Of a stretch of DNA of 17,788 nt, positions 1-10,917 are shown piece by piece. Origin of the DNA: Candidatus Heimdallarchaeota archaeon (GTDB lineage Archaea; Asgardarchaeota; Heimdallarchaeia; JABLTI01); NCBI GenBank assembly GCA_030614005.1, contig JAUWKS010000066.1, positions 1 through 17,788 on the forward strand, in the 5' to 3' direction. Numbering within the stretch: the stretch's first letter is position 1; each line of letters starts with the position of its first letter. Position numbers and translations under genes: made by a program. The notes beneath the pieces were generated by a model. The model was not told where the DNA came from, did no database searches, and was given only the letters and a program-made list of their open reading frames with translations.

Positions 1-651
1 CTTTTACTCGTCAATAATTTCACAGAAAGAGATGACTTTACTAAAATGAAATTCTTTGATGAAACTCTATTCACAATAACTGTTGGAGGACAAGTTTATC
101 TTTATGATTTTTCTGAACTAATAATTCCTGATAATGATTTCTCTAATTGTGACTATGGATTTATCTCAAGAGATGGAGGAGGATTTATTGATGTTATCTT
201 AAAAGATAATATTGTATATCTAAGCACAGGAGCAAGCTTAGTTTTAGTGGATATAAACAACAGAAATAATTTTGAAGAAATACAAACCATAACCGACGGG
301 AATTATTATACATTGGATCTTGAAGAAAACCTACTGTTTGCGAGAGGATCAAATTCAGTTCAGCTTCTAGATATATCTAATTATAATAGTATAGGACAAA
401 CTGAACTCTTTGTAAATAACACTTACCTCTCAAATATTGCAGTAGAAAAGGACTATGTAGCCGTTTCAAACATCATAAAAGGAGCTGACATACTTCTCTT
501 TCAACTTCAATATCCTGACACAGAATCATCAAAAATAATTTGGCCATATATAGTTGGTCCAATTGGTGGAATAGTAATCGTTGTAGCAACGGTTTTCGGA
601 ATAATAAAAATACGAAAGAAAAAAATACAAAAAAAACAACCTGAAAATTGA
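1..651 (+). CDS. C-terminal part of an LVIVD-repeat/beta-propeller-like surface protein with a C-terminal membrane anchor (5'-truncated by window edge)
   Basis: Frame is open from position 1. LVIVD-like repeats (LVLVDINNRNN, VQLLDISNYNS). C-terminal hydrophobic helix (IIWPYIVGPIGGIVIVVATVFGII) followed by a basic stop-transfer tail (KIRKKKIQKK). Confidence 0.7.
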   Translation, partial: LLLVNNFTERDDFTKMKFFDETLFTITVGGQVYLYDFSELIIPDNDFSNCDYGFISRDGGGFIDVILKDNIVYLSTGASLVLVDINNRNNFEEIQTITDGNYYTLDLEENLLFARGSNSVQLLDISNYNSIGQTELFVNNTYLSNIAVEKDYVAVSNIIKGADILLFQLQYPDTESSKIIWPYIVGPIGGIVIVVATVFGIIKIRKKKIQKKQPEN

Positions 652-659
652 AAAATAAT

Positions 660-700
660 GTAGAAAAGATTTCCAAAAAATCTCTATATTTCTACTTTTT
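660..700 (+). terminator. Putative hairpin plus oligo-T terminator after the surface-protein gene
   Basis: GTAGAAA(660-666)/TTTCTAC(689-695) and AGATTT(667-672)/AAATCT(678-683) pair, followed by TTTTT(696-700). Confidence 0.4.
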
Positions 701-837
701 AACTAAAAAATAGAAATTGAAAAACAATAGAAATTAGATAAAAAGAGAAAATGCGCTCAAAAAGAGTGTATAATATACAAGTCTAGAATTAATCCTGCTA
801 GCCTTTAATGAAAGACTTGACTTCTTAAACTGCTCAC

Positions 838-859
838 AAAACATCACAAAGAATCACCT
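838..859 (+). repeat. Left copy of a degenerate direct repeat flanking the Cas1-Cas4 module
   Basis: AAAACA-TCACAAAGAATCACCT vs AAAACAACCACAAAGAAT-ACCT at 6025-6046; 20 of 23 aligned columns identical. Confidence 0.45.
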
Positions 860-945
860 TTAGGGAAATAGATAGAAATGATATCGTAGTATTTCTTGTT
901 TCCTCTAATAGACTAATTTAGGCAATTTTTTCCAACATAAATCAG

Positions 946-1347
946 TCAAAGGATCCTTTGGATCACAACCATCAAGCATAATGGATTGAATTTCGTTAAC
1001 AAAACCAATAAAATAATTGCTATTTTGAATTTGATGATAATCTTCCTTATACTTAGTGAAAATATTTGTTTCTCAAGTGAATTTTTCTTTTTTAATTTAG
1101 ATGTTATTTCTACCATTTCATTTGATGATAAACACTTATTTTTAGTTATTGTGAAGTAATAATTCCAAACCCTCTTTACAAGAATATTATCTAAATTCAA
1201 AGAATACTTTCGTTTACTATAGAGCAAAACATTCTGTTTAGTAGCTTTTTTCAAATAATAGTTAAGTTGAGTCTTTTTCCATTTGAAGTAAGCTTGTAAT
1301 TCACTTATTTTATAGGATTTCAGCAAAAAATGACTGTGAAAGCTCAA
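946..1347 (-). CDS. Winged-helix-like protein, paralog of 4339..5022; possibly the 3' part of a pseudogene extending to ~1464
   Basis: WKKTQLNYYLKKATKQNVLLYSKRKYSLNLDNILVKRV aligns with WKKNRTSQIMQQLVKEGILLYERRKYLLNLDDPFVKRV. ITSKLKKKNSLEKQIF aligns with ITSEVKKEQKNGEKQVY. An in-frame TAA lies at 1354-1356, with an open frame upstream to 1464. Confidence 0.6.
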   Translation of the reverse strand: MSFHSHFLLKSYKISELQAYFKWKKTQLNYYLKKATKQNVLLYSKRKYSLNLDNILVKRVWNYYFTITKNKCLSSNEMVEITSKLKKKNSLEKQIFSLSIRKIIIKFKIAIILLVLLTKFNPLCLMVVIQRIL

Positions 1348-1478
1348 AGCTCTTTATCGAGCAAGTAACTTTACAACTCCTCGGATCATTTGTGCTAATT
1401 CGTATTTTGACAAATTCTTAGCTATTAATAAGCAAAATTCAGCGATAGTACTATTGCTGATACTTCATAAAAGAGAAG

Positions 1479-2210
1479 GTGAGAAAAATAATTACCCATC
1501 AGAAAAACACTGATAACCAAAAGAGAGAAGATAAAATTGGGCTGTTTGTTGATATATTAAACAATACCAACAAGACAATCACAGTAAAGCGAATAAACAA
1601 AACACCTCAAAAACTACTGCTCTATCTTTTATGGATGAAATTAGCATCTGGGGAGAAGATAACCTTAGAAAGTCAAAAAGCGCTAGCAGAGAAACTAAAC
1701 ACTCACCTTAATTCAATTAAGCCAGCACTTAGAAAATTACAGTCATTGAATTATCTCACTCTTGAGAAGGTAAAAAATAAAACAGTCGTTGAAATAAATA
1801 CAATGAATTATGATATTGTTGAATTGCTTTTTCTGATAAGCAAGAGTTTTACTCAAGAGACCTTGAAAAATCTCTCTCAAAATAAACTTCTCAATTCAAA
1901 GAATGTCAATGATGAAGAACAAAAAGAAACATTATCAGTTATCAACCATTTATTAGTAGAGACTGATGCCCAATTCCTGCAAAATAATGCAAGAGAGATT
2001 TCCAATAAAATAGCTGAAGCAATCCATGACGATTTGATTCAAGCTGAGAACAAGACTCAGGTTCTTTTAGATTCTTCTGATTATGATGTAATAATCTCAG
2101 GAACTCTGGAACATATCAAATCAATAATACCAGAACTAGAGTCAACAGGAATAAACCTCAAGCTATCTTCACAACGAAAAATAACTCGAGGAAAACAAGG
2201 TGAGATATGA
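1479..2210 (+). CDS. Winged helix-turn-helix DNA-binding protein (GTG start)
   Basis: wHTH pattern SQKALAEKLNTHLNSIKPALRKLQSLNYLTLEKVKNKTVVEIN; lies directly upstream of the Cas1-like gene. Confidence 0.7.
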   Translation: MRKIITHQKNTDNQKREDKIGLFVDILNNTNKTITVKRINKTPQKLLLYLLWMKLASGEKITLESQKALAEKLNTHLNSIKPALRKLQSLNYLTLEKVKNKTVVEINTMNYDIVELLFLISKSFTQETLKNLSQNKLLNSKNVNDEEQKETLSVINHLLVETDAQFLQNNAREISNKIAEAIHDDLIQAENKTQVLLDSSDYDVIISGTLEHIKSIIPELESTGINLKLSSQRKITRGKQGEI

Positions 2211-2225
2211 CAAGGAGATGCTGAC

Positions 2226-4322
2226 TTGGTTTCTTCCCAGAACAAAGATGGAAAAAAAACTGCTTTCTCAGCTAAAGTTGAAAACGCTATCTTGAATTTC
2301 ATTAGAGAACGAGCTCTACAAGCTATGCCATTGGATTTAACTAAGGAAGATTCAGTAATACTTGAGCAGTTTTCTTCAAGAATCAATACCCTCTTTCCGG
2401 CAACTAAAATGGAAATAGCTAAGATTGTTAATCTGCATGAAAGTACAACTTCAGATTTTTTGGAGAAGCTTCGAAGAAGCAAGAAAGTCAAATCAAGATT
2501 ATTTATGTGGTTTAATAAGAAAATCAGATTCTATATCCCATATGATATGTCTTGGCCAAGATATCTAGAATGGACATGTAAAAATTGTGAGAATTGGAAC
2601 AGGTTCAATCGTAGTTGCACATTCTATCAGGATCTTGCAATGAAAGGCTTTACAGTTGATGAACAACGCTATGTGAAACAAATCAAACCAAAACTAACTG
2701 CTTGTAAATGGAGGATTCCTCGAACAAAAAACCCAATTAAAACATTTCATTCTATTCAAGAATTTGCAGAAGAAATTTACGATTCAAATATGTGGTGGAA
2801 AGAGAATGACATGAATAACAATTACTTGCATAGTCCACAAGTTCCTCTCTCTGCTTATAGGTGCTATTTCTGTAAGAAACCGATACCTCAGTTTGGGTGG
2901 GGAGTATTGCCATTAATAGGCAGTTCACTAACATCCTGCTATTATTGCGGTTCTTTTTACAAACTGTTTTTTGATCAGACAGAAGAGAAATATTATGTGA
3001 AAGCTTCCAAAGAGAAATTTAGAGAATACTCAAGGAATTATAGATTGTTTACAGGAGGAGAAGATCCAGTTAGAGGTTATTCAAGTGTAAATTATGGACT
3101 CTCACTTTACGACTTTAATGACGAAGTTGATTTACATGATGAAATCTATGCTTTCACTTCATTCAATCTTTTTGCTTATTATAACCAATTAAAATACTTG
3201 GTCGTGAGAAAAGAGGAATATTACGATGTCCTACAAGCAAAACTAGCTGCTCATTATTCTGATATGAACATTATTTTGGCAAAAGAGCAACCTGTGAGTG
3301 CGAAACCAACAAAGCAGCAAATAGGCGCAACGCGGTTATTGCAAAAAACTGGTGTACTGAGCACTAATTATGCGATAGAATTACTTTGGAATAGGCTAGC
3401 AGTTCTTAATGAAATAAGCGACCTTGCTAACAAAAGAAAACTGCTTTTAGCTCGAGAAATCACTACAGAATTAATAACTAAAATACAGCAGATGAAGAAG
3501 AACAAGCAGATATTAACTAGCAATATCTGGAATACTATTGATGGACAAGCAGCAAATTACATGTGGGCAGTTATAAAAGAGATAATGGAAAAACAGGGTT
3601 TTGAAATGCCTAATCGCTCGAGATCAAGGCATCTTGAAAATGATCCCTTTAAGCCTTGGAGCTTTTTTCAAAGTTATTCTAATGGAAATACAGTCATTAA
3701 TGGCTCATTTAGAATGATCTCTGACTTGTATTTAGAGAAGTGTATAGAGCAAGGGTTCCCTTGGAAGGGGTTGGAAGGAATCTGTCATAGAAATACCCAT
3801 GGAGGTGAGATTGGGCTAAAATTGGATAATGAGGAAGGTCCCAAACTAGGAACGCTATCACAAACTTTGAGAATGATAGTTGACGAACGAATAAAACCGG
3901 AGATGATTTTCTCGGAAAGATTGAGAAAAAGAATACCTGTTTTTTATGTCAAAGAACAATCACAAGCCTATGTGGAGATGGAAGATAATTGTCAAAAGAT
4001 TGGTGAATTGAAAATACGGTCGGTTATATATGGGAAAGAGCAAGAAACAACGATCAGTAAAGCAATGGATTATAACATTGCAAGCATGAACAAACTGTTG
4101 GAAGACATTGCTTGGAAAGATGACACGGTAATTACTCTTGAGGGAAAGAAGTATGCTCCTTGGGCAATTGCTGCGGAAAACAAATGGGCTGCTCTCACTA
4201 GGAAACAATTAACAATAATATCTAGTTCTTTGAGTGAAATTATCAAAGACGCGGGGGAGTATTTTGCTCCCTTTAGATTGCGATTTGGTTCATCACTAGA
4301 GGAGTTTGATTTCAAGTTTTAG
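2226..4322 (+). CDS. cas1: Large, highly diverged Cas1 homolog (Asgard aCas1-like): HTH + Cys cluster + Zn ribbon + Cas1 catalytic domain
   Basis: TTG start with AGGAG SD. HTH (ATKMEIAKIVNLHESTTSDFLEKL), CKNC..C..C cluster, CYFC...CYYC ribbon. Cas1 motifs in order: TIDGQAANYMW (~EGxAAxxYF, D439), NRSRSR, NTVINGSF (~NxxLNYxY), GICH (H521), LKLDNEE (~LxxDxxE, D534/E537). Confidence 0.75.
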   Translation: MVSSQNKDGKKTAFSAKVENAILNFIRERALQAMPLDLTKEDSVILEQFSSRINTLFPATKMEIAKIVNLHESTTSDFLEKLRRSKKVKSRLFMWFNKKIRFYIPYDMSWPRYLEWTCKNCENWNRFNRSCTFYQDLAMKGFTVDEQRYVKQIKPKLTACKWRIPRTKNPIKTFHSIQEFAEEIYDSNMWWKENDMNNNYLHSPQVPLSAYRCYFCKKPIPQFGWGVLPLIGSSLTSCYYCGSFYKLFFDQTEEKYYVKASKEKFREYSRNYRLFTGGEDPVRGYSSVNYGLSLYDFNDEVDLHDEIYAFTSFNLFAYYNQLKYLVVRKEEYYDVLQAKLAAHYSDMNIILAKEQPVSAKPTKQQIGATRLLQKTGVLSTNYAIELLWNRLAVLNEISDLANKRKLLLAREITTELITKIQQMKKNKQILTSNIWNTIDGQAANYMWAVIKEIMEKQGFEMPNRSRSRHLENDPFKPWSFFQSYSNGNTVINGSFRMISDLYLEKCIEQGFPWKGLEGICHRNTHGGEIGLKLDNEEGPKLGTLSQTLRMIVDERIKPEMIFSERLRKRIPVFYVKEQSQAYVEMEDNCQKIGELKIRSVIYGKEQETTISKAMDYNIASMNKLLEDIAWKDDTVITLEGKKYAPWAIAAENKWAALTRKQLTIISSSLSEIIKDAGEYFAPFRLRFGSSLEEFDFKF

Positions 4323-4338
4323 AAGATGGTGTAAAACA

Positions 4339-5022
4339 ATGGTATATGCTCTATCAAATAAAAATGAAAAGGTAATTTCACTTGTGGAGTTATTCCTTGA
4401 ACTTGAGGAAGAAATAACAAACAATACAATCAAAGGTGAGAGCTTTTCAAAGCTCATTTTTGAATTGATAGTTATTTTAGGCAAAAGAGATTTCATAAAG
4501 ACCTATAAGATAACCAAACTGCTTCTCAAGCAATTTGTAGAATTTGGTGTAATTGAACCAAAGGGAGAAAAAGAACTTGAGGTGCTACTCCCTTGGAAAA
4601 AAAATCGTACATCTCAAATAATGCAACAATTAGTTAAAGAAGGAATTCTGTTGTACGAGAGAAGAAAATACTTGCTCAATCTGGATGATCCTTTTGTAAA
4701 GAGAGTGAAAGGGAGTATAAGATTAGGAGAGAAGGATATTGATATTGAAGAGATGATTACAAAATTCTCAGAAAAAATTTGTCCAATGATTGAGGAACAT
4801 GAATCTATAACCTCTGAAGTCAAAAAAGAACAAAAGAATGGTGAAAAACAAGTTTACCGAAAAGCAACACGACAGGAGATGAAGCAGTTCTACCGAGAGA
4901 TTTTCAGTAAATATATTGGGGAATCATTTTCTGATAATGAATTCGTTATTAAAAAAAATCTAGTATCATTGATAAAAAACAATATTTTATTGACAATAGG
5001 AATTGTTCAAAAAGAAGAGTAG
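4339..5022 (+). CDS. Winged-helix-like protein, paralog of 946..1347
   Basis: ATG at 4339 with GGTG SD preferred over the TTG at 4306 that overlaps cas1. The central segment has an HTH-wing pattern shared with 946..1347. Confidence 0.7.
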   Translation: MVYALSNKNEKVISLVELFLELEEEITNNTIKGESFSKLIFELIVILGKRDFIKTYKITKLLLKQFVEFGVIEPKGEKELEVLLPWKKNRTSQIMQQLVKEGILLYERRKYLLNLDDPFVKRVKGSIRLGEKDIDIEEMITKFSEKICPMIEEHESITSEVKKEQKNGEKQVYRKATRQEMKQFYREIFSKYIGESFSDNEFVIKKNLVSLIKNNILLTIGIVQKEE

Positions 5023-5054
5023 AGTAAGAATATCTTTTTTAATACAGGACTCCA

Positions 5055-5801
5055 TTACTCATGTTTCTTTAGCATTTTATCAGGAACTTTAGTGCAAATA
5101 ACCGCATAGCTACATTTGTTTTTTTGTAGATGGCAATCTGCCCTTGGAAATAAATCACCTGTGAGCATCTGTTCTCGATAATTCTCGAGATTGACCTTAA
5201 AATCAGACAGATCTTCTGTTGTAACTTCTTGTGAGAACCATTCACCAGAATCATAAAAGTAGCAACCGACTTGAGAAACCTTTCTGCTGTAGGTTTGTTT
5301 GAATTCTTGACTTTCTGTTGCTAGAAGTGCATAAAATAGTAGTTCTTCGTTCAAAAAGCCACTTCTTCTCTCCGAAGATTTATACTCGACGATTCGGCAT
5401 TCATTGTCTGATAACGGATCCACCCTGTCGATCTGTCCACGCATAGTATCTGTTGCCAGGTAGAGTTCATGGGCTAAGGGATACCAATTGTTAGGGTCAA
5501 CTTGATAGCGCTGAACTTCTTGTTCCCAGAATTTTCGTAGAATTGGTTGTGTTGTTACTTTGTCTGGTGTAGGGTTTTGATTGATGACGTCATCAGCAAA
5601 ATTTTTGTAGAATTCTCGTAATTTACGATGTTCTTTCAAGCCCTTTTTGAAATGTGTGGGATAATTGGAATGATCTTTTATCCTTCGAGGACCTTCTTTC
5701 ATTTGCTGGTTTTGTTGTTTTAGTAAGTAGAACTTTAGTGAGCACTCTAAATAAGCAGTAAATTCTGTTTTGCTAAGATTAAATCGTTTGATAGTTGTCA
5801 T
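5055..5801 (-). CDS. cas4: Cas4-like PD-(D/E)XK (RecB-family) nuclease with four putative Fe-S cysteines
   Basis: C20 plus C223/C230/C236; GxxxH (H58); E112; RGQIDRVD (D125); IVEYKSS (E139/K141); ELLFY in place of the QxxxY motif. Confidence 0.8.
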   Translation of the reverse strand: MTTIKRFNLSKTEFTAYLECSLKFYLLKQQNQQMKEGPRRIKDHSNYPTHFKKGLKEHRKLREFYKNFADDVINQNPTPDKVTTQPILRKFWEQEVQRYQVDPNNWYPLAHELYLATDTMRGQIDRVDPLSDNECRIVEYKSSERRSGFLNEELLFYALLATESQEFKQTYSRKVSQVGCYFYDSGEWFSQEVTTEDLSDFKVNLENYREQMLTGDLFPRADCHLQKNKCSYAVICTKVPDKMLKKHE

Positions 5802-5960
5802 GGTTAAATAACTTATAAACAGTTTTCTTTTTTAATAGCTAAAAAATGGAATTTAAATCTTAAATTTTAGCATTTTTAGTAAAAAATAACTAAAAAGTCA
5901 ATCTCAAAATCCTCAAAAAACAGAAACAATAGTTTTTTCAAGAAAAAATAATGAAAACCT

Positions 5961-6019
5961 ATCACAAAAAATTGGGCGAAAAAAAGAAAAAAGAGAACTC
6001 ATCACAAAAAAATGGGCGA
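5961..6019 (+). repeat. Two 19-bp direct repeats with a 40-bp period
   Basis: ATCACAAAAAATTGGGCGA (5961-5979) and ATCACAAAAAAATGGGCGA (6001-6019); 18/19 identical. Confidence 0.75.
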
Positions 6020-6024
6020 GAGAG

Positions 6025-6046
6025 AAAACAACCACAAAGAATACCT
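6025..6046 (+). repeat. Right copy of the degenerate direct repeat flanking the Cas1-Cas4 module
   Basis: AAAACAACCACAAAGAATACCT; matches 838-859 with a 10-bp exact core CACAAAGAAT. Confidence 0.45.
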
Positions 6047-6215
6047 ATGAAAGGGGTCTTCTCCAACCACCTTTAATCATTTCAGCCTTTCCTAAAACTA
6101 CTCGGATAAAATGAACGAGAGAGAATCCGCTAAATATACATTTTATTCCTTTTCCCGCCTCTAATTTTCCGCTGGGCTCCCTCTGATAAGTTTGTATGAT
6201 GATGCAAATATCGAT

Positions 6216-7820
6216 TTAATTTTTGTTTATTTTTTCTCTCCAAAGAGATTTAATTAACGATATATTCACTTGATATTTCTTATAAATTCCAAAAGTTAAG
6301 AGAAATTTACTTAATAATCTATTAGAATGAATTTCGTCCTGGGAATTATTGCCCAATATTTTTTCTTGTAATAAGAATAATTCATCAGTTGGGTGATAAA
6401 GTGTTGCACCTCTTACAGTTGGAATAAGATTCTTCACAAGTTTTTCCAAATCATCTGAAGGGCGGATTGGTAATTTATAAGGATGTGAAGAAGCAGACCT
6501 AAATGTTATGTTATTGTAGTATTTTTGTAGAAAGGGCATTAATTCTTGATTTGTGTTAGTTAGATGTTTAAGCAGCTTTCTAATTGTAATTCCATAATCA
6601 TTCTTATAATTTTGCAGATCACTTTTTGAAAATATACTAGTTTTATGGAGGATGGCACGAAAATAATAACCTAAGCCAATTATAGAGACCTTAGGTAAAT
6701 AGGAGAAATCAAAAAAACCATCTGTTGTTATTCTTTTGGAATTAAATCCATGAAAAGACAAATTTTGAATGTTATTTTGTAGCATTCTAATGAAATCTTG
6801 AGATTTTTTTGGATGTAATGAACCAATCAAATCAGCAATTTTCATTTTATCTTTTGCTAAAACATTTACTTGAAATCCACCTCCCTTTTTGGAGAAGAAA
6901 TGGGATTCAATATCATTTACTTCTAAATACTTTTGAAAATCCTTTGAATAATTTTCACTTATAGAACAAAAGACTATCTGATTCTTAAAAGAACCATCAG
7001 CATCAAACGCACCACGCCAATACAAACTCCGGTAAGGTTCACCCAATTTTTGAAAGATAAGAGGTTCTCGTAATGTGTTATATTTTGGTTCATCGATTGC
7101 TTGATTCGTTAGAAAATTAAACAAACGAACAGTCCAGAGAAGATTTAATTTTACTATCCAAGCACCTCCCGTTTTCATTAGTTTTCCATTTTTCGAGAAT
7201 TGTTCATTTAGCAAACTAGTAACGAATTCAATATGTTCTTTTGTTTCATCTGCAACAATAATCCAATATTGTCTTAAATTTCCATCACCATTGCAGATTC
7301 CACAGAGATAAGCCAATTTATTTGTTACACTCGTAGGAAAAGTGAAGGCTTCTCCTCGAGCGCTCGTAAAAGGAATATTTCCAGCATCATTCACAGGGAG
7401 AGATAATTCTAGAATAATTTCCTGCGCACAGCGAAATAATGGAAAGGGCAACGCTCCCTGTTCAAGGTACTTACAAATAATATCCCGCCAGGCGGTGATG
7501 GTCTTGTTTATTGAGCGATAAAAGTAATCTCGAGCCACTTCAGCTATGGGAAGGGTTCGTTCTTGAATTTTGGTTCGAATCTCGTCTGTCAGGATAAGGA
7601 ATGGAAATCGAGCGATGATCCTATCCCTTGCACCTTTTCGCACAAAGTCTATCTTTCGTACCATTATTCCATAGATGTTAACGAAGGAAAGGTCATTATT
7701 AATTACAACACCGATAGCAGATGTTCGAAGGATACTATTTGCTGTCTCCCAGTCGTTGTATGATGTGGGTTCTTCATCATATAGCAATGGATCCATAGAC
7801 CAATGGAGATAAGTAGCCAT
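6216..7820 (-). CDS. Stand-alone double-motif LAGLIDADG endonuclease-like protein with N- and C-terminal extensions
   Basis: LAYLCGICNGDG (D179) and YWRGAFDADGSF (D275). No intein splice motifs seen; has its own GAGGA SD. Confidence 0.8.
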   Translation of the reverse strand: MATYLHWSMDPLLYDEEPTSYNDWETANSILRTSAIGVVINNDLSFVNIYGIMVRKIDFVRKGARDRIIARFPFLILTDEIRTKIQERTLPIAEVARDYFYRSINKTITAWRDIICKYLEQGALPFPLFRCAQEIILELSLPVNDAGNIPFTSARGEAFTFPTSVTNKLAYLCGICNGDGNLRQYWIIVADETKEHIEFVTSLLNEQFSKNGKLMKTGGAWIVKLNLLWTVRLFNFLTNQAIDEPKYNTLREPLIFQKLGEPYRSLYWRGAFDADGSFKNQIVFCSISENYSKDFQKYLEVNDIESHFFSKKGGGFQVNVLAKDKMKIADLIGSLHPKKSQDFIRMLQNNIQNLSFHGFNSKRITTDGFFDFSYLPKVSIIGLGYYFRAILHKTSIFSKSDLQNYKNDYGITIRKLLKHLTNTNQELMPFLQKYYNNITFRSASSHPYKLPIRPSDDLEKLVKNLIPTVRGATLYHPTDELFLLQEKILGNNSQDEIHSNRLLSKFLLTFGIYKKYQVNISLIKSLWREKINKN

Positions 7821-7992
7821 AGTATTATCCTCTTGAATTTATGTTTTGTTTATACTATTAAATACCCCTTTGTACAACTATCCGAAAAGTAAAGGATCAG
7901 TTTGCCAATTAATTACTACCATAGAGTAATTCCTCTAAGCTTTGTTTGTACGATTAATATTAACTCACCGAAATTAACAATAAAATACTAAA

Positions 7993-8154
7993 TTATTCCT
8001 CTATTTTCTTGCACAAGAAACTGTCTTCTTCTAAAGTGATTCCTAAAATGTCACCTTTCTTTAAATTCAAAGACTCAACAATTTCTTTTGGAACTATGAA
8101 TTGTAATGAAGCTTTGTTTTGCACCAACTTCCTTTTGAATACTATTTTTGCCAT
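7993..8154 (-). CDS. AbrB/MazE/SpoVT-family DNA-binding protein, 53 aa (not in the ORF track)
   Basis: Manual translation: MAKIVFKRKLVQNKASLQFIVPKEIVESLNLKKGDILGITLEEDSFLCKKIEE. Carries the AbrB signature (vPKEI.E.L.LK.GD); GAGGG SD upstream. Confidence 0.85.
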   Translation of the reverse strand: MAKIVFKRKLVQNKASLQFIVPKEIVESLNLKKGDILGITLEEDSFLCKKIEE

Positions 8155-8170
8155 TTTTTACCCTCTTATG

Positions 8171-8255
8171 CAATGCTTAAGCAATTATTACATCATGCGT
8201 AAGATTTATATCTATGTTTCTACTTACAATATACTTAAGCAATACTTAAGTATTG
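8171..8255. promoter_or_regulatory. Divergent abrB/cas7 promoter region with repeated CTTAAG-centred palindromic operators
   Basis: Perfect 16-bp palindrome CAATACTTAAGTATTG (8240-8255), TGCTTAAGCA (8174-8183), ATACTTAAGC (8231-8240), and TATA-like TTTATAT (8205-8211). Confidence 0.6.
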
Positions 8256-8275
8256 TTCGAATTTGGTGAAAAAGA

Positions 8276-9040
8276 ATGAACGTCTCTCGTAAATTTAAAA
8301 GAATAAAAATAGAAATGCGAACACCAATTGCAAAACCAGGCAATGGGCAAATTAGTAACGGAAAGATAAACAACTTACTGCTAATTGGAAATGGAACCGG
8401 GAAAGAAGGAAAGAGATACTTAGTGAAAGGACTTCGAGGACTGCTAAATCACTCAATGATGACGATAGCAGAACAAAAAGGAATAGAGATATGCCATTCG
8501 TCAAATAAAGTGGAAACACAAAGTGGAGAGAATTTACTACCAGCAAATTTCCACCCAAACGGTGCATGTTACCCGGAAAATGAGTGCATTAGACACTGGT
8601 TGATGGGATCAATCAATAAGAGATCAGTGTTGCGGTTTAAACCTGTGGTTATTGTATCTGAGAACGGAAAAAGAAAAGCTACAGGAGGGCAAAAAATGCA
8701 CATCGCTACAGAAAATCGAAATAGCCTAATGAAAGACACAATGAAAGCTATCCAAGATTTTGGGGATAGATACATAGCTGGGAAGTTCACACTAGTAATT
8801 GAATTATTGCGAGAACTTTCTCAAGAAGAATTAGGATTCCTATTGAAAAGCATACTCAATTTTCCAGAGATGGGGTTCGGGGGGGCAGTAAACAATGGAT
8901 CGGGGGAAATCATCTTAGAAAAAGTAGCATTACAAGAAGTGGTTCGAACAAGAGCTATTGGGAAAAAAGGAACAATAATCGAGGAGGAGAAAGAGAAAAA
9001 CCTTTGGAAAGAGATGGAGGAGGGGCTTGCATCTTGGTAA
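8276..9040 (+). CDS. cas7: Cas7-group RAMP protein (Csm3-like; ARAMP-type)
   Basis: N-terminal strand + TP; KGLRGLL (~SLKGxLR); Cys/His knuckle CHS...ACYPENECIRHWLMGS (~C..C.LFGS); SVLRF; C-terminal G-rich loop GFGGAVNNGSG. Confidence 0.8.
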   Translation: MNVSRKFKRIKIEMRTPIAKPGNGQISNGKINNLLLIGNGTGKEGKRYLVKGLRGLLNHSMMTIAEQKGIEICHSSNKVETQSGENLLPANFHPNGACYPENECIRHWLMGSINKRSVLRFKPVVIVSENGKRKATGGQKMHIATENRNSLMKDTMKAIQDFGDRYIAGKFTLVIELLRELSQEELGFLLKSILNFPEMGFGGAVNNGSGEIILEKVALQEVVRTRAIGKKGTIIEEEKEKNLWKEMEEGLASW

Positions 9041-9972
9041 CAAAGAGGATCTTTACTCTCGAGGGAAAATTACTGACACCAATAATAACACCCTCATTAG
9101 TAACAAAGAATGGTTCTTGTAGATGTAAAGTGCTGCGAAATTTAACATCAGAGAAAAAACCACTAAGAACATACATTGGTAAACTAGTAAAAGGAGAACG
9201 AAAAGCACCAGCAAAACAATTAGCATACAGAGGATTTGTGAGAATAACAACCGTAGATTGGAATAACGAAAGAGGGAGAAAGAACATTCAAAACTTTTTC
9301 AAAAGAGAACACCTGGGTAAGAAAACAAATGAAGGATTTGGTATGGTTCAATGGGTAAATTACAAAGAGGGACCATACAAACCAGTGGAACAAGAACAAA
9401 AGAGAAAAAAATTAAAGTTTAGAAAAGGGTTGGGACCAAATTATCCTAAAGAATTACAAAGATTGATTATAGCATTAATGCTTCACGATTTTGTGCATAC
9501 AGAGAAACATCCGAGCAAGATATTCAAAGAAATAACGATTAATGATGTAGAAATTAGAACTGCCTGTTTGAACCATCACAACGGAACAACTAATGAAAAC
9601 ATACTACTGCCTTTGATTAGATATTACGATGGATTAGCTTCTTACATAACGAGAAAGAAACCTTTCAAAACTTTAACGAGATATGACTATCAAAATGGGA
9701 AAATAGCATTCGAACAATTAGCAGAAGAAATAGAAGAAAGACAAGATTCCGCATACAAACTATACAATTACATCTACTACTCAAAAGAATTAAAGCGAAT
9801 AGTGGAATCTATGACTTACGGACAGAACAGCCTGAGAAACCACTTGCTATTAATGGTAAATTTAGCAATAAATGACTATCTAAGCAGAAAAATAATAATA
9901 GCAAATGGGGCAATAATCAATAGAAATAACAACCAAAAGACTAAAAAATCAATCTCAGAATCGGCAACTTGA
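9034..9972 (+). CDS. cas5: Cas5-group RAMP fused to a Cas10-type circularly permuted HD nuclease domain
   Basis: TTG at 9034 with GGAGG SD, overlapping the cas7 stop. RAMP start (FTLEGKLLTPII) and G-loop HLGKKTNEGFG. HD motifs LHD (H151/D152), NHH (H181/H182), YDGLAS..R (D199), C-terminal SLRNHLL (H270). Confidence 0.75.
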   Translation: MVTKRIFTLEGKLLTPIITPSLVTKNGSCRCKVLRNLTSEKKPLRTYIGKLVKGERKAPAKQLAYRGFVRITTVDWNNERGRKNIQNFFKREHLGKKTNEGFGMVQWVNYKEGPYKPVEQEQKRKKLKFRKGLGPNYPKELQRLIIALMLHDFVHTEKHPSKIFKEITINDVEIRTACLNHHNGTTNENILLPLIRYYDGLASYITRKKPFKTLTRYDYQNGKIAFEQLAEEIEERQDSAYKLYNYIYYSKELKRIVESMTYGQNSLRNHLLLMVNLAINDYLSRKIIIANGAIINRNNNQKTKKSISESAT

Positions 9973-10035
9973 TGCGGAGAAATGCAAAGGAATAAAAGCA
10001 TTCGCAAAAGTGCTAGAGATGTTGAGATGCATCTA
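9971..10035 (+). ncRNA. Candidate structured RNA element downstream of cas5-HD (speculative)
   Basis: Hairpin TGCG[GAGA]AATGC-loop-GCATT-CGCA and hairpin AGATG-loop-CATCT. Two similar motifs GATGCGGAGAAATGCA (9971-9986) and GATGTTGAGATGCA (10018-10031), 31 nt apart. Confidence 0.25.
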
Positions 10036-10149
10036 ATCCTTGACCATGAACAAAACTAACTCAAGAGAGATAATCCAACTCGAAGAATGAGAAGGCTCGG
10101 AGCATAGGCAGGGAAAAGCCAACAGAAAAAGTCGGTAGGAGACAGAAAA

Positions 10150-10917
10150 ATTTACTACGTAGCTGAAGTTCGCGATACAATTAGAGTAATCCCCAAGAGA
10201 TTTGGCGAAGACCTAGAAGAAGTTGTACTAGAAATATGTAGAGAGACATTTGAGGGTACAATCAGCAAAGAATTAGGACTTACTATAGTTGTAGTTGATC
10301 TCTTGGAGATAGGTCCTGGAAGACTTGTTCCCGGTGATGGAGCAGCATTCTATGACGTTATATTTAGTACTTTGAATTATTTACCAGAAGATAGAGAATT
10401 TATTCTTGGCGATGTTGTAGAAGTAACTGATTTCGGTGTCTTCTTACGACTTGGCTGTGTTGATGCACTATGCCATGTTAGTCAAGTTGCTGATGATTAC
10501 TATTCTTATAGCTCAAAACAAGGTGTCTTATTAGGGCGCGAAAGTGGGAAGACTATTAGTGTTGGTGATAGAGTACGAGCTAGAATAATTGCTGTAACTA
10601 TTGGAAAATCCCAAATAAGAATTGGAGTAACAATGAGACAAGCAGGTCTAGGTGTTGAAAGTTGGGTAGAGGAATGGAAGAAAGCTTCCGCCACTGCAAA
10701 AGATAAGAAACCTGCTGGAAAGGACAAAGCGACTAAAGGAAAAGCTGATAAAAAAACTAAATCCGATTCAAAAGATAAATCTAGTTCAAAATCCACAACA
10801 AAGAAGGCTACTACAAAAAAAGCTACAACAAAGAAACCTGCTAAAAAGAAGACTGCCGATAAGAAACCTGCCGAAAAGAAAACTACAGCAAAGAAGTCCA
10901 CAACCAAAAAGAAATGA
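10150..10917 (+). CDS. rpoE1: DNA-directed RNA polymerase subunit E' (Rpo7), probable ATT start, Lys/Thr-rich C-terminal tail
   Basis: The frame upstream of the tracked 10303 start reads (I)YYVAEVRDTIRVIPKRFGEDLEEVVLEICRETFEG, the canonical Rpo7 N-terminus. S1 domain GVFLRLGCVDALCHVSQV; IGVTMRQAGLG motif. Confidence 0.95.
   Translation: MYYVAEVRDTIRVIPKRFGEDLEEVVLEICRETFEGTISKELGLTIVVVDLLEIGPGRLVPGDGAAFYDVIFSTLNYLPEDREFILGDVVEVTDFGVFLRLGCVDALCHVSQVADDYYSYSSKQGVLLGRESGKTISVGDRVRARIIAVTIGKSQIRIGVTMRQAGLGVESWVEEWKKASATAKDKKPAGKDKATKGKADKKTKSDSKDKSSSKSTTKKATTKKATTKKPAKKKTADKKPAEKKTTAKKSTTKKK

Follow-up and report, generated by a model that had tools for sequence, protein, structure and literature searches.

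A very diverged Cas1-superfamily protein and its conserved gene cassette in a Heimdallarchaeota genome

A five-gene cassette around a diverged Cas1 homologue

Cas1 enzymes link transposition and CRISPR memory, and the Asgard archaea hold, to our knowledge, the widest known diversity of these proteins. Here, we describe a locus from Candidatus Heimdallarchaeota archaeon (GenBank assembly GCA_030614005.1, contig JAUWKS010000066.1) in which an open frame with a TTG start encodes a 698-aa protein related to Cas1, referred to below as aCas1. The stretch of DNA that was analysed, hereafter the window, is 17,788 bp long and corresponds to the entire contig C122 of an assembly of 3.6 Mb in 126 contigs that is about 90% complete. 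The features of the locus are collected in Table 1.

The aCas1 gene is the centre of a conserved cassette of five genes, namely those for a winged helix-turn-helix (wHTH) protein (F12), aCas1 itself, a further wHTH protein (F10), a Cas4-like nuclease (F6) and a protein that joins LAGLIDADG and helix-turn-helix (HTH) domains (F1). Eight external loci, drawn from other genomes and from metagenomes, all have aCas1, F10 and the Cas4-like gene as their core, F10 following aCas1 each time, while F12 is found in five and the LAGLIDADG-HTH gene in four, several of the others being short contigs. The original prediction, made from the letters of the window, had cast aCas1 as a stand-alone enzyme; this is not so, given its translational coupling to a wHTH protein and its conserved Cas4-like and LAGLIDADG-HTH partners.

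Table 1. Features of the aCas1 locus, in window coordinates
Feature	Position	Strand	Basis
aCas1, 698-aa diverged Cas1-superfamily integrase (predicted)	2226..4322	+	structure, profile, conservation
aCas1 residues 12-107, winged helix-turn-helix domain	2259..2546	+	VIA-align Z ~10, pLDDT 75-91
aCas1 residues 118-160, first Cys4 module (C118, C121, C131, C160)	2577..2705	+	four Cys invariant in 11 homologues
aCas1 residues 213-241, CxxC...CxxC zinc ribbon (C213, C216, C238, C241)	2862..2948	+	Cys invariant
aCas1 residues ~289-357, probable reduced Cas1 N-terminal beta domain	3090..3296	+	weak structural matches
aCas1 residues 359-686, Cas1 catalytic alpha-helical domain	3300..4283	+	Z 19.0 against 4n06, hidden Markov model alignment to casposase, conservation
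Catalytic codons D439, H521, D534, E537	3540-3542, 3786-3788, 3825-3827, 3834-3836	+	read directly
F12, 243-aa winged-helix protein 5' of aCas1, 15-nt gap	1479..2210	+	weak HTH matches, position
F10, 227-238-aa winged-helix protein, 17-nt overlap with aCas1 stop	4306..5022	+	alignment motif
F6, Cas4-like PD-(D/E)XK nuclease, four Fe-S-type cysteines	5055..5801	-	Pfam, PADLOC, motif residues
F1, 534-aa double-LAGLIDADG and C-terminal HTH_3 protein, WhiA-like layout	6216..7820	-	PF14528, PF01381
F4, RAMP (Cas7/Csm3-like) protein	8276..9040	+	paralogues match PF03787
F5, probable HD-nuclease protein, RAMP partner, premature TGA end	9004..9972	+	HD-like motif
Two 40-nt direct repeats, core TCACAAAAAANTGGGCGA, upstream of Cas4-like gene	5940..6019		repeat scan

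The partner genes can be assigned with differing firmness. F12 has a match to Pfam HTH_36 that falls under the cut-off (E 0.0018), together with weak PHROG matches to replication-initiator-like wHTH proteins, and a homologue occupies the equivalent position in the metagenomic locus L002 and in L033-L036. The F10 gene, which is called in databases from an ATG at 4339, encodes a conserved motif (LPWKKSRLS..LVKEGIL..KRKY) that we read as wHTH-like. A Cas2-like role for F10 was considered and rejected as unsupported, its motif reading as a winged helix and Atlas returning HTH leads only. The assignment of F6 draws on Pfam (PDDEXK_1, 3e-12), on PADLOC (Cas4b and Cas4, 5e-6 and 1e-5) and on an alignment in which C20, D125, K141 and C223 are invariant and Y140, C230 and C236 at least 90% conserved, with the cysteines in the Cas4 pattern. 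Two remote relatives of aCas1, P0043 and P0044, carry PDDEXK_1 and an aCas1-like domain fused in one chain. A complex prediction for aCas1 residues 355-698 with the Cas4-like protein, run without controls, scored 0.00 and counts as evidence neither way. At least 12 paralogues of F1 occur in the genome, eight of which adjoin an aCas1 gene; all 12 of those compared match PF14528 and nine of the 12 match PF01381.

Cas1 ancestry, active site and domain order

Taken by itself, aCas1 has no match to Cas1 in Pfam, NCBIfam or PHROGs and no sequence match in the PDB; for the Cas1 family PF01867 this holds at E values up to 0.1, and PADLOC returns two weak Cas1 matches over residues 399-468 (E 0.0013 and 0.0045). 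The AlphaFold model of the protein is of moderate confidence overall (predicted local distance difference test (pLDDT) 60), with a better C-terminal half, and the best 45 matches of this model in a Foldseek search of the PDB are all Cas1 or casposase (lowest E 4.3e-6). When aligned with VIA-align, residues 359-686 lie on residues 80-344 of the Archaeoglobus fulgidus Cas1 (4n06) with a Z of 19.0 and a root-mean-square deviation (rmsd) of 3.6 A over 244 residues, the alignments with casposase and with Cas1 of Cas4-containing systems being nearly equal to this one. The superposition on the Cas1 helical domain that had been expected of the predicted structure was thereby obtained.

The wider family leads to the same place. 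An exhaustive profile search of 1.84 billion representatives brought together 42 proteins of the aCas1 family, among which the remote relatives P0036 and P0045 exceed the PF01867 threshold of 22.3 bits, with scores of 24.0 and 24.3, and P0037 and P0033 lie slightly under it, all of these matches covering the catalytic half of the model. The PF01867 search that had been proposed as a check was thus negative for aCas1 alone and positive for two of its relatives. A profile made from the C-terminal domain of 34 family members and searched against PDB sequences found the Methanosarcina mazei casposase 6OPM (E 5.3e-6) and, weakly, a Synechocystis Cas1. Once a 17-residue SEQRES offset is removed, the H/D/E of the family falls on casposase H232/D244/E247, the casposase active site being E162, H232 and E247 (PMC6977970), and the first motif of aCas1, WNTIDGQAA, is aligned with the E-G-x-A-A motif of Cas1. 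Since structure, family profile and relatives passing PF01867 agree, as three routes to one assignment, we take aCas1, on this modelling and sequence evidence, to be a real, very diverged member of the Cas1 superfamily with an intact-looking active site, which bears out the earlier recognition of a Cas1 homologue from four motifs.

The codons for the four catalytic positions and for eight cysteines can be read directly in the DNA, and in the alignment the start of the homologues (MV...) coincides with the TTG start. Ten aCas1 homologues of 41-89% identity were returned by a word-indexed search of 5.8 billion proteins, one of them carrying the name Candidatus Heimdallarchaeota. D439 is invariant among these homologues, and H521, D534 and E537 are kept wherever the sequence reaches them. 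When 34 sequences of the wider family are aligned, R464, R468, N492, H521 and D534 show no variation; because the consensus of this alignment has Glu at 439, as it does at 537, the Asp found at 439 in the present subfamily reads as a conservative change. The earlier choice of D439, H521, D534 and E537 as the Cas1 catalytic set stands, these positions being conserved and aligned with those of the casposase active site. In a comparison with a sibling copy of the cassette on contig C78, the ratio of nonsynonymous to synonymous divergence (dN/dS) is lowest in the Cas4-like gene (0.16) and aCas1 (0.18) and lies at 0.25-0.40 in the remaining genes (F12 0.40). As all values between the sibling copies lie within 0.16-0.40, every gene of the cassette is under purifying selection, strongest on aCas1 and the Cas4-like nuclease.

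The N-terminal half of aCas1 holds further modules. Residues 12-107 align at a Z of about 10 with winged helices of the PadR, Z-alpha and MarR types, and the zinc ribbon at residues 213-241 precedes the Cas1-like domain in remote relatives too. Residues 100-400 were also modelled on their own, from 25 sequences, and this model reached a pLDDT of 82 and a predicted template modelling (pTM) score of 0.72. Foldseek gave no match for this model; a Foldseek-independent VIA search of 48,161 chains gave, as the best matches of residues ~289-357, the N-domains of seven Cas1 structures (7mi4, 6qxf, 7kft, 4n06, 8d3p, 2yzs and 7cr6), which are weak (Z 3.4-4.2, ~60 residues, rmsd 3.0). The zinc-module region, residues 100-288, had no structural match in Foldseek or in the same 48,161 chains. 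A reduced Cas1 N-domain thus probably survives directly before the catalytic domain, and the winged helix and the two Cys4 modules are probably additions to it and not its replacements. The modelled order of domains would then begin with a winged helix, a Cys4 module and a Cys4 zinc ribbon, followed by the reduced N-domain and ending in a complete Cas1 catalytic domain. Of the earlier claim that DNA-binding modules stand in the place of the Cas1 beta domain, the modules themselves are real (the winged helix by its Z of about 10, both Cys4 modules by their invariant cysteines), while the loss of the beta domain is probably not complete.

Given the conserved catalytic set, the purifying selection, the added DNA-binding modules and the lack of Cas2 and of an array, it is a reasonable reading that aCas1 is an active integrase or transposase, as predicted. 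We think it very unlikely that the protein is a domesticated Cas1 that has given up strand transfer and now uses its winged helix and zinc modules only to bind DNA, as a regulator or scaffold. Its four extra DNA-binding modules, its helix-turn-helix neighbours and the Asp that takes the first catalytic position of the usual Glu would suit such a role, but every catalytic position is kept across the family and its remote relatives, the change from Glu to Asp is conservative in a wider family that has Glu, and it is precisely aCas1 and the Cas4-like nuclease that show the strongest purifying selection. Scarcely credible is the idea that the likeness to Cas1 is a chance match of short motifs in a protein of another fold, which could appeal to the silence of the Pfam, NCBIfam, PHROG and PDB sequence searches with aCas1 alone. 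We regard chance resemblance as ruled out by the uniform Foldseek result, by a Z of 19 over 244 residues and by the profile match to casposase, in which the catalytic residues are aligned.

Copies, neighbours and the variable island

The family profile has ten matches in the assembly, and the partner genes have been co-duplicated. Five of the matches lie in frames of ~500-700 aa and most of the remainder are large forms, in open frames of 1132-1395 aa. These larger paralogues (1124-1392 aa) occupy at least three places in the genome (L015, which is C9 2933-14014, L019, L020 and L021), in a gene order of TnpB, LAGLIDADG-HTH, aCas1 and a protein joining a superfamily 2 (SF2) helicase, MZB and a metallophosphoesterase. 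The cassettes on contigs C67 and C9 are too diverged in DNA to show the ends of a unit.

The closest copy is the sibling on C78 (locus L012). Positions 1325-7872 of the window and this contig share ~87% DNA identity over 4.9 kb, falling to 75% in the F1 part, while the neighbours differ on both sides, C78 having a TnpB gene where the window has a RAMP and an HD gene. The five-gene cassette has been duplicated as a unit. The TnpB of C78 (L012 4263-5456, minus strand, 397 aa) has OrfB_IS605 and Cas12f1-like TNB matches and lies beside the LAGLIDADG-HTH gene. Synonymous divergence (dS) between the two LAGLIDADG-HTH genes (window 6216-7820, L012 5716-7254) is 1.43, as against 0.31-0.55 for the other four genes; this, with 75% as against 87% DNA identity, points to a cassette of mosaic history or to replacement of a gene within it. 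Just beyond the left edge of the common unit, at 1325, sits an open reading frame (ORF) of 133 aa (946-1347, minus strand), a truncated and inverted paralogue of F10 (33-44% identity) that may be a remnant of an older cassette.

The sequences that had been put forward as element ends, 838-859 and 5961-6046, do not behave as such. The 22-bp direct repeat at 838-859 matches the region at 6026 in only 15 of 22 positions, and these two sites bracket neither the duplicated unit 1325-7872 nor a segment, 716-8743, that is missing in the closest relative. The repeats at 5961-6046 turned out to be the two 40-nt direct repeats of Table 1, which lie 160-220 nt upstream of the Cas4-like gene and are kept, both and with the same spacing, only in the sibling (L012 7449-7506); their core was found in no other fetched locus. 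As element ends they were rejected; they are possibly an operator for one of the HTH proteins.

To the right of the cassette lie the genes for a RAMP protein (F4) and its partner (F5). Six of the seven RAMP paralogues in the genome match PF03787 (best 8.5e-8), and the window copy has a PADLOC match to Csm3 at E 0.01. F5 carries a conserved LHDFVH..H..HH motif, a PADLOC match to the Cas10 N-terminus (E 0.0026) and Atlas HD leads at 0.79, and its assignment as an HD nuclease is a lead only. Its frame closes on a TGA at 9970-9972; the orthologue in a related species, G084 (L032), continues for 29 codons to a conserved tail, DAEMH...DHEQ, which the DNA at 9973-10060 of the window still encodes in frame with F5. 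Decay of the gene may thus be under way, as it is in G081, the closest relative.

Beyond these genes the window holds a housekeeping block (an S1-domain protein, DUF359, S24e and a small kinase) that each of the ten other species of the genus has kept. For three species (G086, G089 and G082), homology to the window starts at ~10153 and other syntenic genes lie upstream, so that the region left of ~10153 is a variable island of at least 10 kb. G084 has the LAGLIDADG-HTH, RAMP and HD genes at the same site, and a short contig that would fit next to these genes holds the remainder of the cassette. In G081, which is 88% identical, it is window 716-8743 that is missing and fragments of the RAMP and HD genes remain; the junction looks, from sequence comparison, like a deletion that removed the aCas1 cassette. 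These fragments abut DNA matching window 538-716 (L028 on C19, 9300-10540). A search of 399 genomes of the phylum, which scored no more than two candidates per genome, detected the aCas1 family in 11; it is mostly confined to one genus, in which eight of the ten other species have it. The upstream syntenic block of the window's own genome is on contig C70.

Among sequencing runs, this stretch was found in DNA contigs from marine sediment and cold seep only, with no RNA run among them. Those from two studies, one of each habitat, diverge from the window at 934, 1287, 1842, 3422, 6462 and 9288, the break at 1287 being present in both and near the 1325 edge of the duplicated unit; the first five of these breaks are probably due to paralogues or other strains. 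A metagenomic joint of 3442 to 8471 has 21 letters on its shorter side and was taken as a repeat artefact. Relatives' contigs also break near 10788-10907, where tandem repeats of 15 and 30 nt encode a Lys/Thr/Ala-rich tail in the gene for the S1-domain protein. At the left end, the window and contig C77 share 88% identity over the first 578 nt of each, and window 1-651 and C77 1-578 both code for the C-terminal portion of a relative of a larger C67 protein with LVIVD repeats; the shared start looks like an assembly break at a repeat.

Relation to known systems and possible function

Extremely diverged Cas1 homologues of unprecedented diversity were described in Asgard archaea by Makarova et al. 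2020 (CRISPR J 3:156), as the accounts in PMC8730458 and PMC12669027 summarise it. According to the same accounts, some of these homologues belong to ARAMP loci, which derive from type III systems, lack an array and contain RAMPs together with PD-(D/E)xK or HNH nucleases; others are possibly part of new mobile elements. Altae-Tran et al. 2023 described aCas1-TnpB loci, many of them with flanking repeats, for which aCas1 was proposed to be the transposase (PMC10691335). The present locus is of a kind already known, catalogued by computation in 2020, of which the window provides a further member; it fits the ARAMP description, as its sibling fits that of the aCas1-TnpB loci.

As far as the summarised descriptions of ARAMP loci go, the shared traits are a diverged Cas1 without an array in an Asgard genome, a Cas4-like PD-(D/E)xK nuclease, RAMPs and further nucleases, while the family in the window is set apart from those descriptions by its wHTH domain and two Cys4 modules, its length of ~700 aa and its LAGLIDADG-HTH partner. 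With the aCas1-TnpB loci (Cas1H-Asgard-1/-2; PMC10691335) the genome shares the TnpB beside the sibling copy and the TnpB-containing order of the larger paralogues, whereas the copy in the window has no TnpB, no flanking repeats were found for it, and the GTTCACTCA motif of those loci occurs at chance level only. The Family 2 casposase of M. mazei (6OPM; Hickman et al. 2020, PMC6977970) is the best profile match and has in common the catalytic domain with its E/H/E-type triad; it works without Cas2 and depends on an HTH domain (PMC6977970), and the aCas1 locus likewise lacks Cas2 and has HTH modules. Unlike the casposase, aCas1 carries its HTH at the N-terminus and not at the C-terminus, with two added zinc modules and a reduced N-terminal beta domain, in a locus without PolB in which no terminal inverted repeats were found; its Cas4-like and LAGLIDADG-HTH partners are not casposon genes. 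The Cas4-Cas1-Cas2 adaptation modules (7MI4, 8D3L), finally, share the Cas1 catalytic domain (Z 18.4 to 7mi4_B) and a Cas4-family Fe-S nuclease, a pairing that recurs in the single-chain fusions among remote relatives, but here Cas2, CRISPR array and leader are missing and the Cas4-like gene is on the opposite strand.

The absences on which these comparisons draw have the following scope. Searches of the aCas1 neighbours in Pfam, NCBIfam and PADLOC gave no match to Cas2. The window was scanned for Rfam families, tRNAs and tandem repeats, and has no CRISPR array, tRNA or Rfam RNA. The ~90% complete assembly lacks a canonical Cas1 and any CRISPR-like array, exact 18-mers never recurring three or more times in a run at a spacing of 45-100 nt. 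Among the 19 window ORFs that were scanned, none has a polymerase domain. A window-wide repeat scan, on a contig that stops short of the left end of the island, gave no terminal repeats.

For the function of the locus, we prefer a reading as a mobility module to one as a CRISPR-like memory device. The cassette would be the integration module, for mobility or duplication, of related Asgard genomic islands whose nuclease partners can be exchanged, a proposal whose chances of being right and wrong we hold to be about evenly poised. In such a module, aCas1 would join a DNA 3'-OH to target DNA by transesterification of the Cas1 type, the Cas4-like nuclease would prepare or trim the DNA ends, and four helix-turn-helix modules, together with the zinc modules, would choose ends or target. 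The HTH and zinc modules could take the architectural place of Cas2, or of the tetramer contacts and C-terminal HTH of the casposase. The exchangeable nucleases would be the RAMP and HD proteins in the window and TnpB in the sibling copy. In support of this reading we count the Cas1 fold and the sequence link to casposase, the conservation and purifying selection, the recurrent cassette, its copies with co-duplicated partners, the duplicated unit with differing neighbours, the variable island, the lack of a canonical Cas1 and of an array in the assembly, and the published proposal of aCas1 as the transposase of the aCas1-TnpB loci (PMC10691335). Several observations weigh against it. The copies are old, most being ~21-30% identical in protein and the closest pair 87% in DNA, and nothing points to recent transposition. 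A targeted search of 1100-1500 against 7700-8100, and of the C78 equivalents, revealed neither inverted repeats nor target duplications where the duplicated unit ends. The true ends of the element are not seen, the left end of the island lying off the contig, in an assembly gap, since the first 3.7 kb of C70 carry multi-copy genes (~230-590 aa) unrelated to the cassette. A species with housekeeping DNA of only 68% identity has the island at the same chromosomal site, which fits long vertical residence as well as site-specific insertion, and the RAMP and HD genes keep their order beside the cassette in the distant locus L002, as would fit a host defence system.

That last point leads to an alternative which we hold possible though rather doubtful, namely that the locus is an array-less type III CRISPR derivative of the ARAMP type working in defence, and so a host gene set and not a mobile one, with aCas1 and the Cas4-like protein as an adaptation-like or DNA-processing arm and the RAMP and HD proteins as the effector arm. 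In its favour, the RAMP and probable HD genes adjoin the cassette and keep their order in G084 as well as in L002, where the same seven genes stand in the same order and aCas1 is 46% identical; the genome has seven RAMP-HD pairs, of which five are close to a gene for aCas1 or F1; a patchy presence among congeners is typical of defence islands; and ARAMP loci, in the published accounts as summarised (PMC12669027, PMC8730458), are array-less, derived from type III, linked to PD-(D/E)xK or HNH nucleases and mostly provided with a distinct Cas1. It sits less well with the sibling cassette, 87% identical, which has TnpB in place of the RAMP pair; with L001 and L036-L038, which reach 2.5-10 kb past the cassette and in which no RAMP pair was found; with two RAMP-HD pairs (C9c and C9d) that have no aCas1 nearby; and with the premature stop of the HD gene in the window and the decay of the pair in G081. 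Ten diverged copies per genome would also be unusual for a defence system. An integration module that serves mobility and an arm of an ARAMP system are not mutually exclusive. Quite improbable, in our estimate, is the more ambitious possibility that the cassette is a portable writing module placed beside guide-dependent or RAMP-type nucleases, whose targeting information it would supply or renew without a CRISPR array; were this true, the module would be a surviving link from Cas1 transposons to the adaptation modules of CRISPR systems.

The locus is a compact candidate for biochemistry, offering an aCas1 with an intact-looking active site, DNA-binding modules of its own and defined partners, in a genome where two diverged sibling copies are joined to different nucleases. 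The DNA substrate and integration site of aCas1 would tell whether Cas1 works as a Cas2-free integrase outside casposons, and would also clarify the role of array-less CRISPR derivatives.

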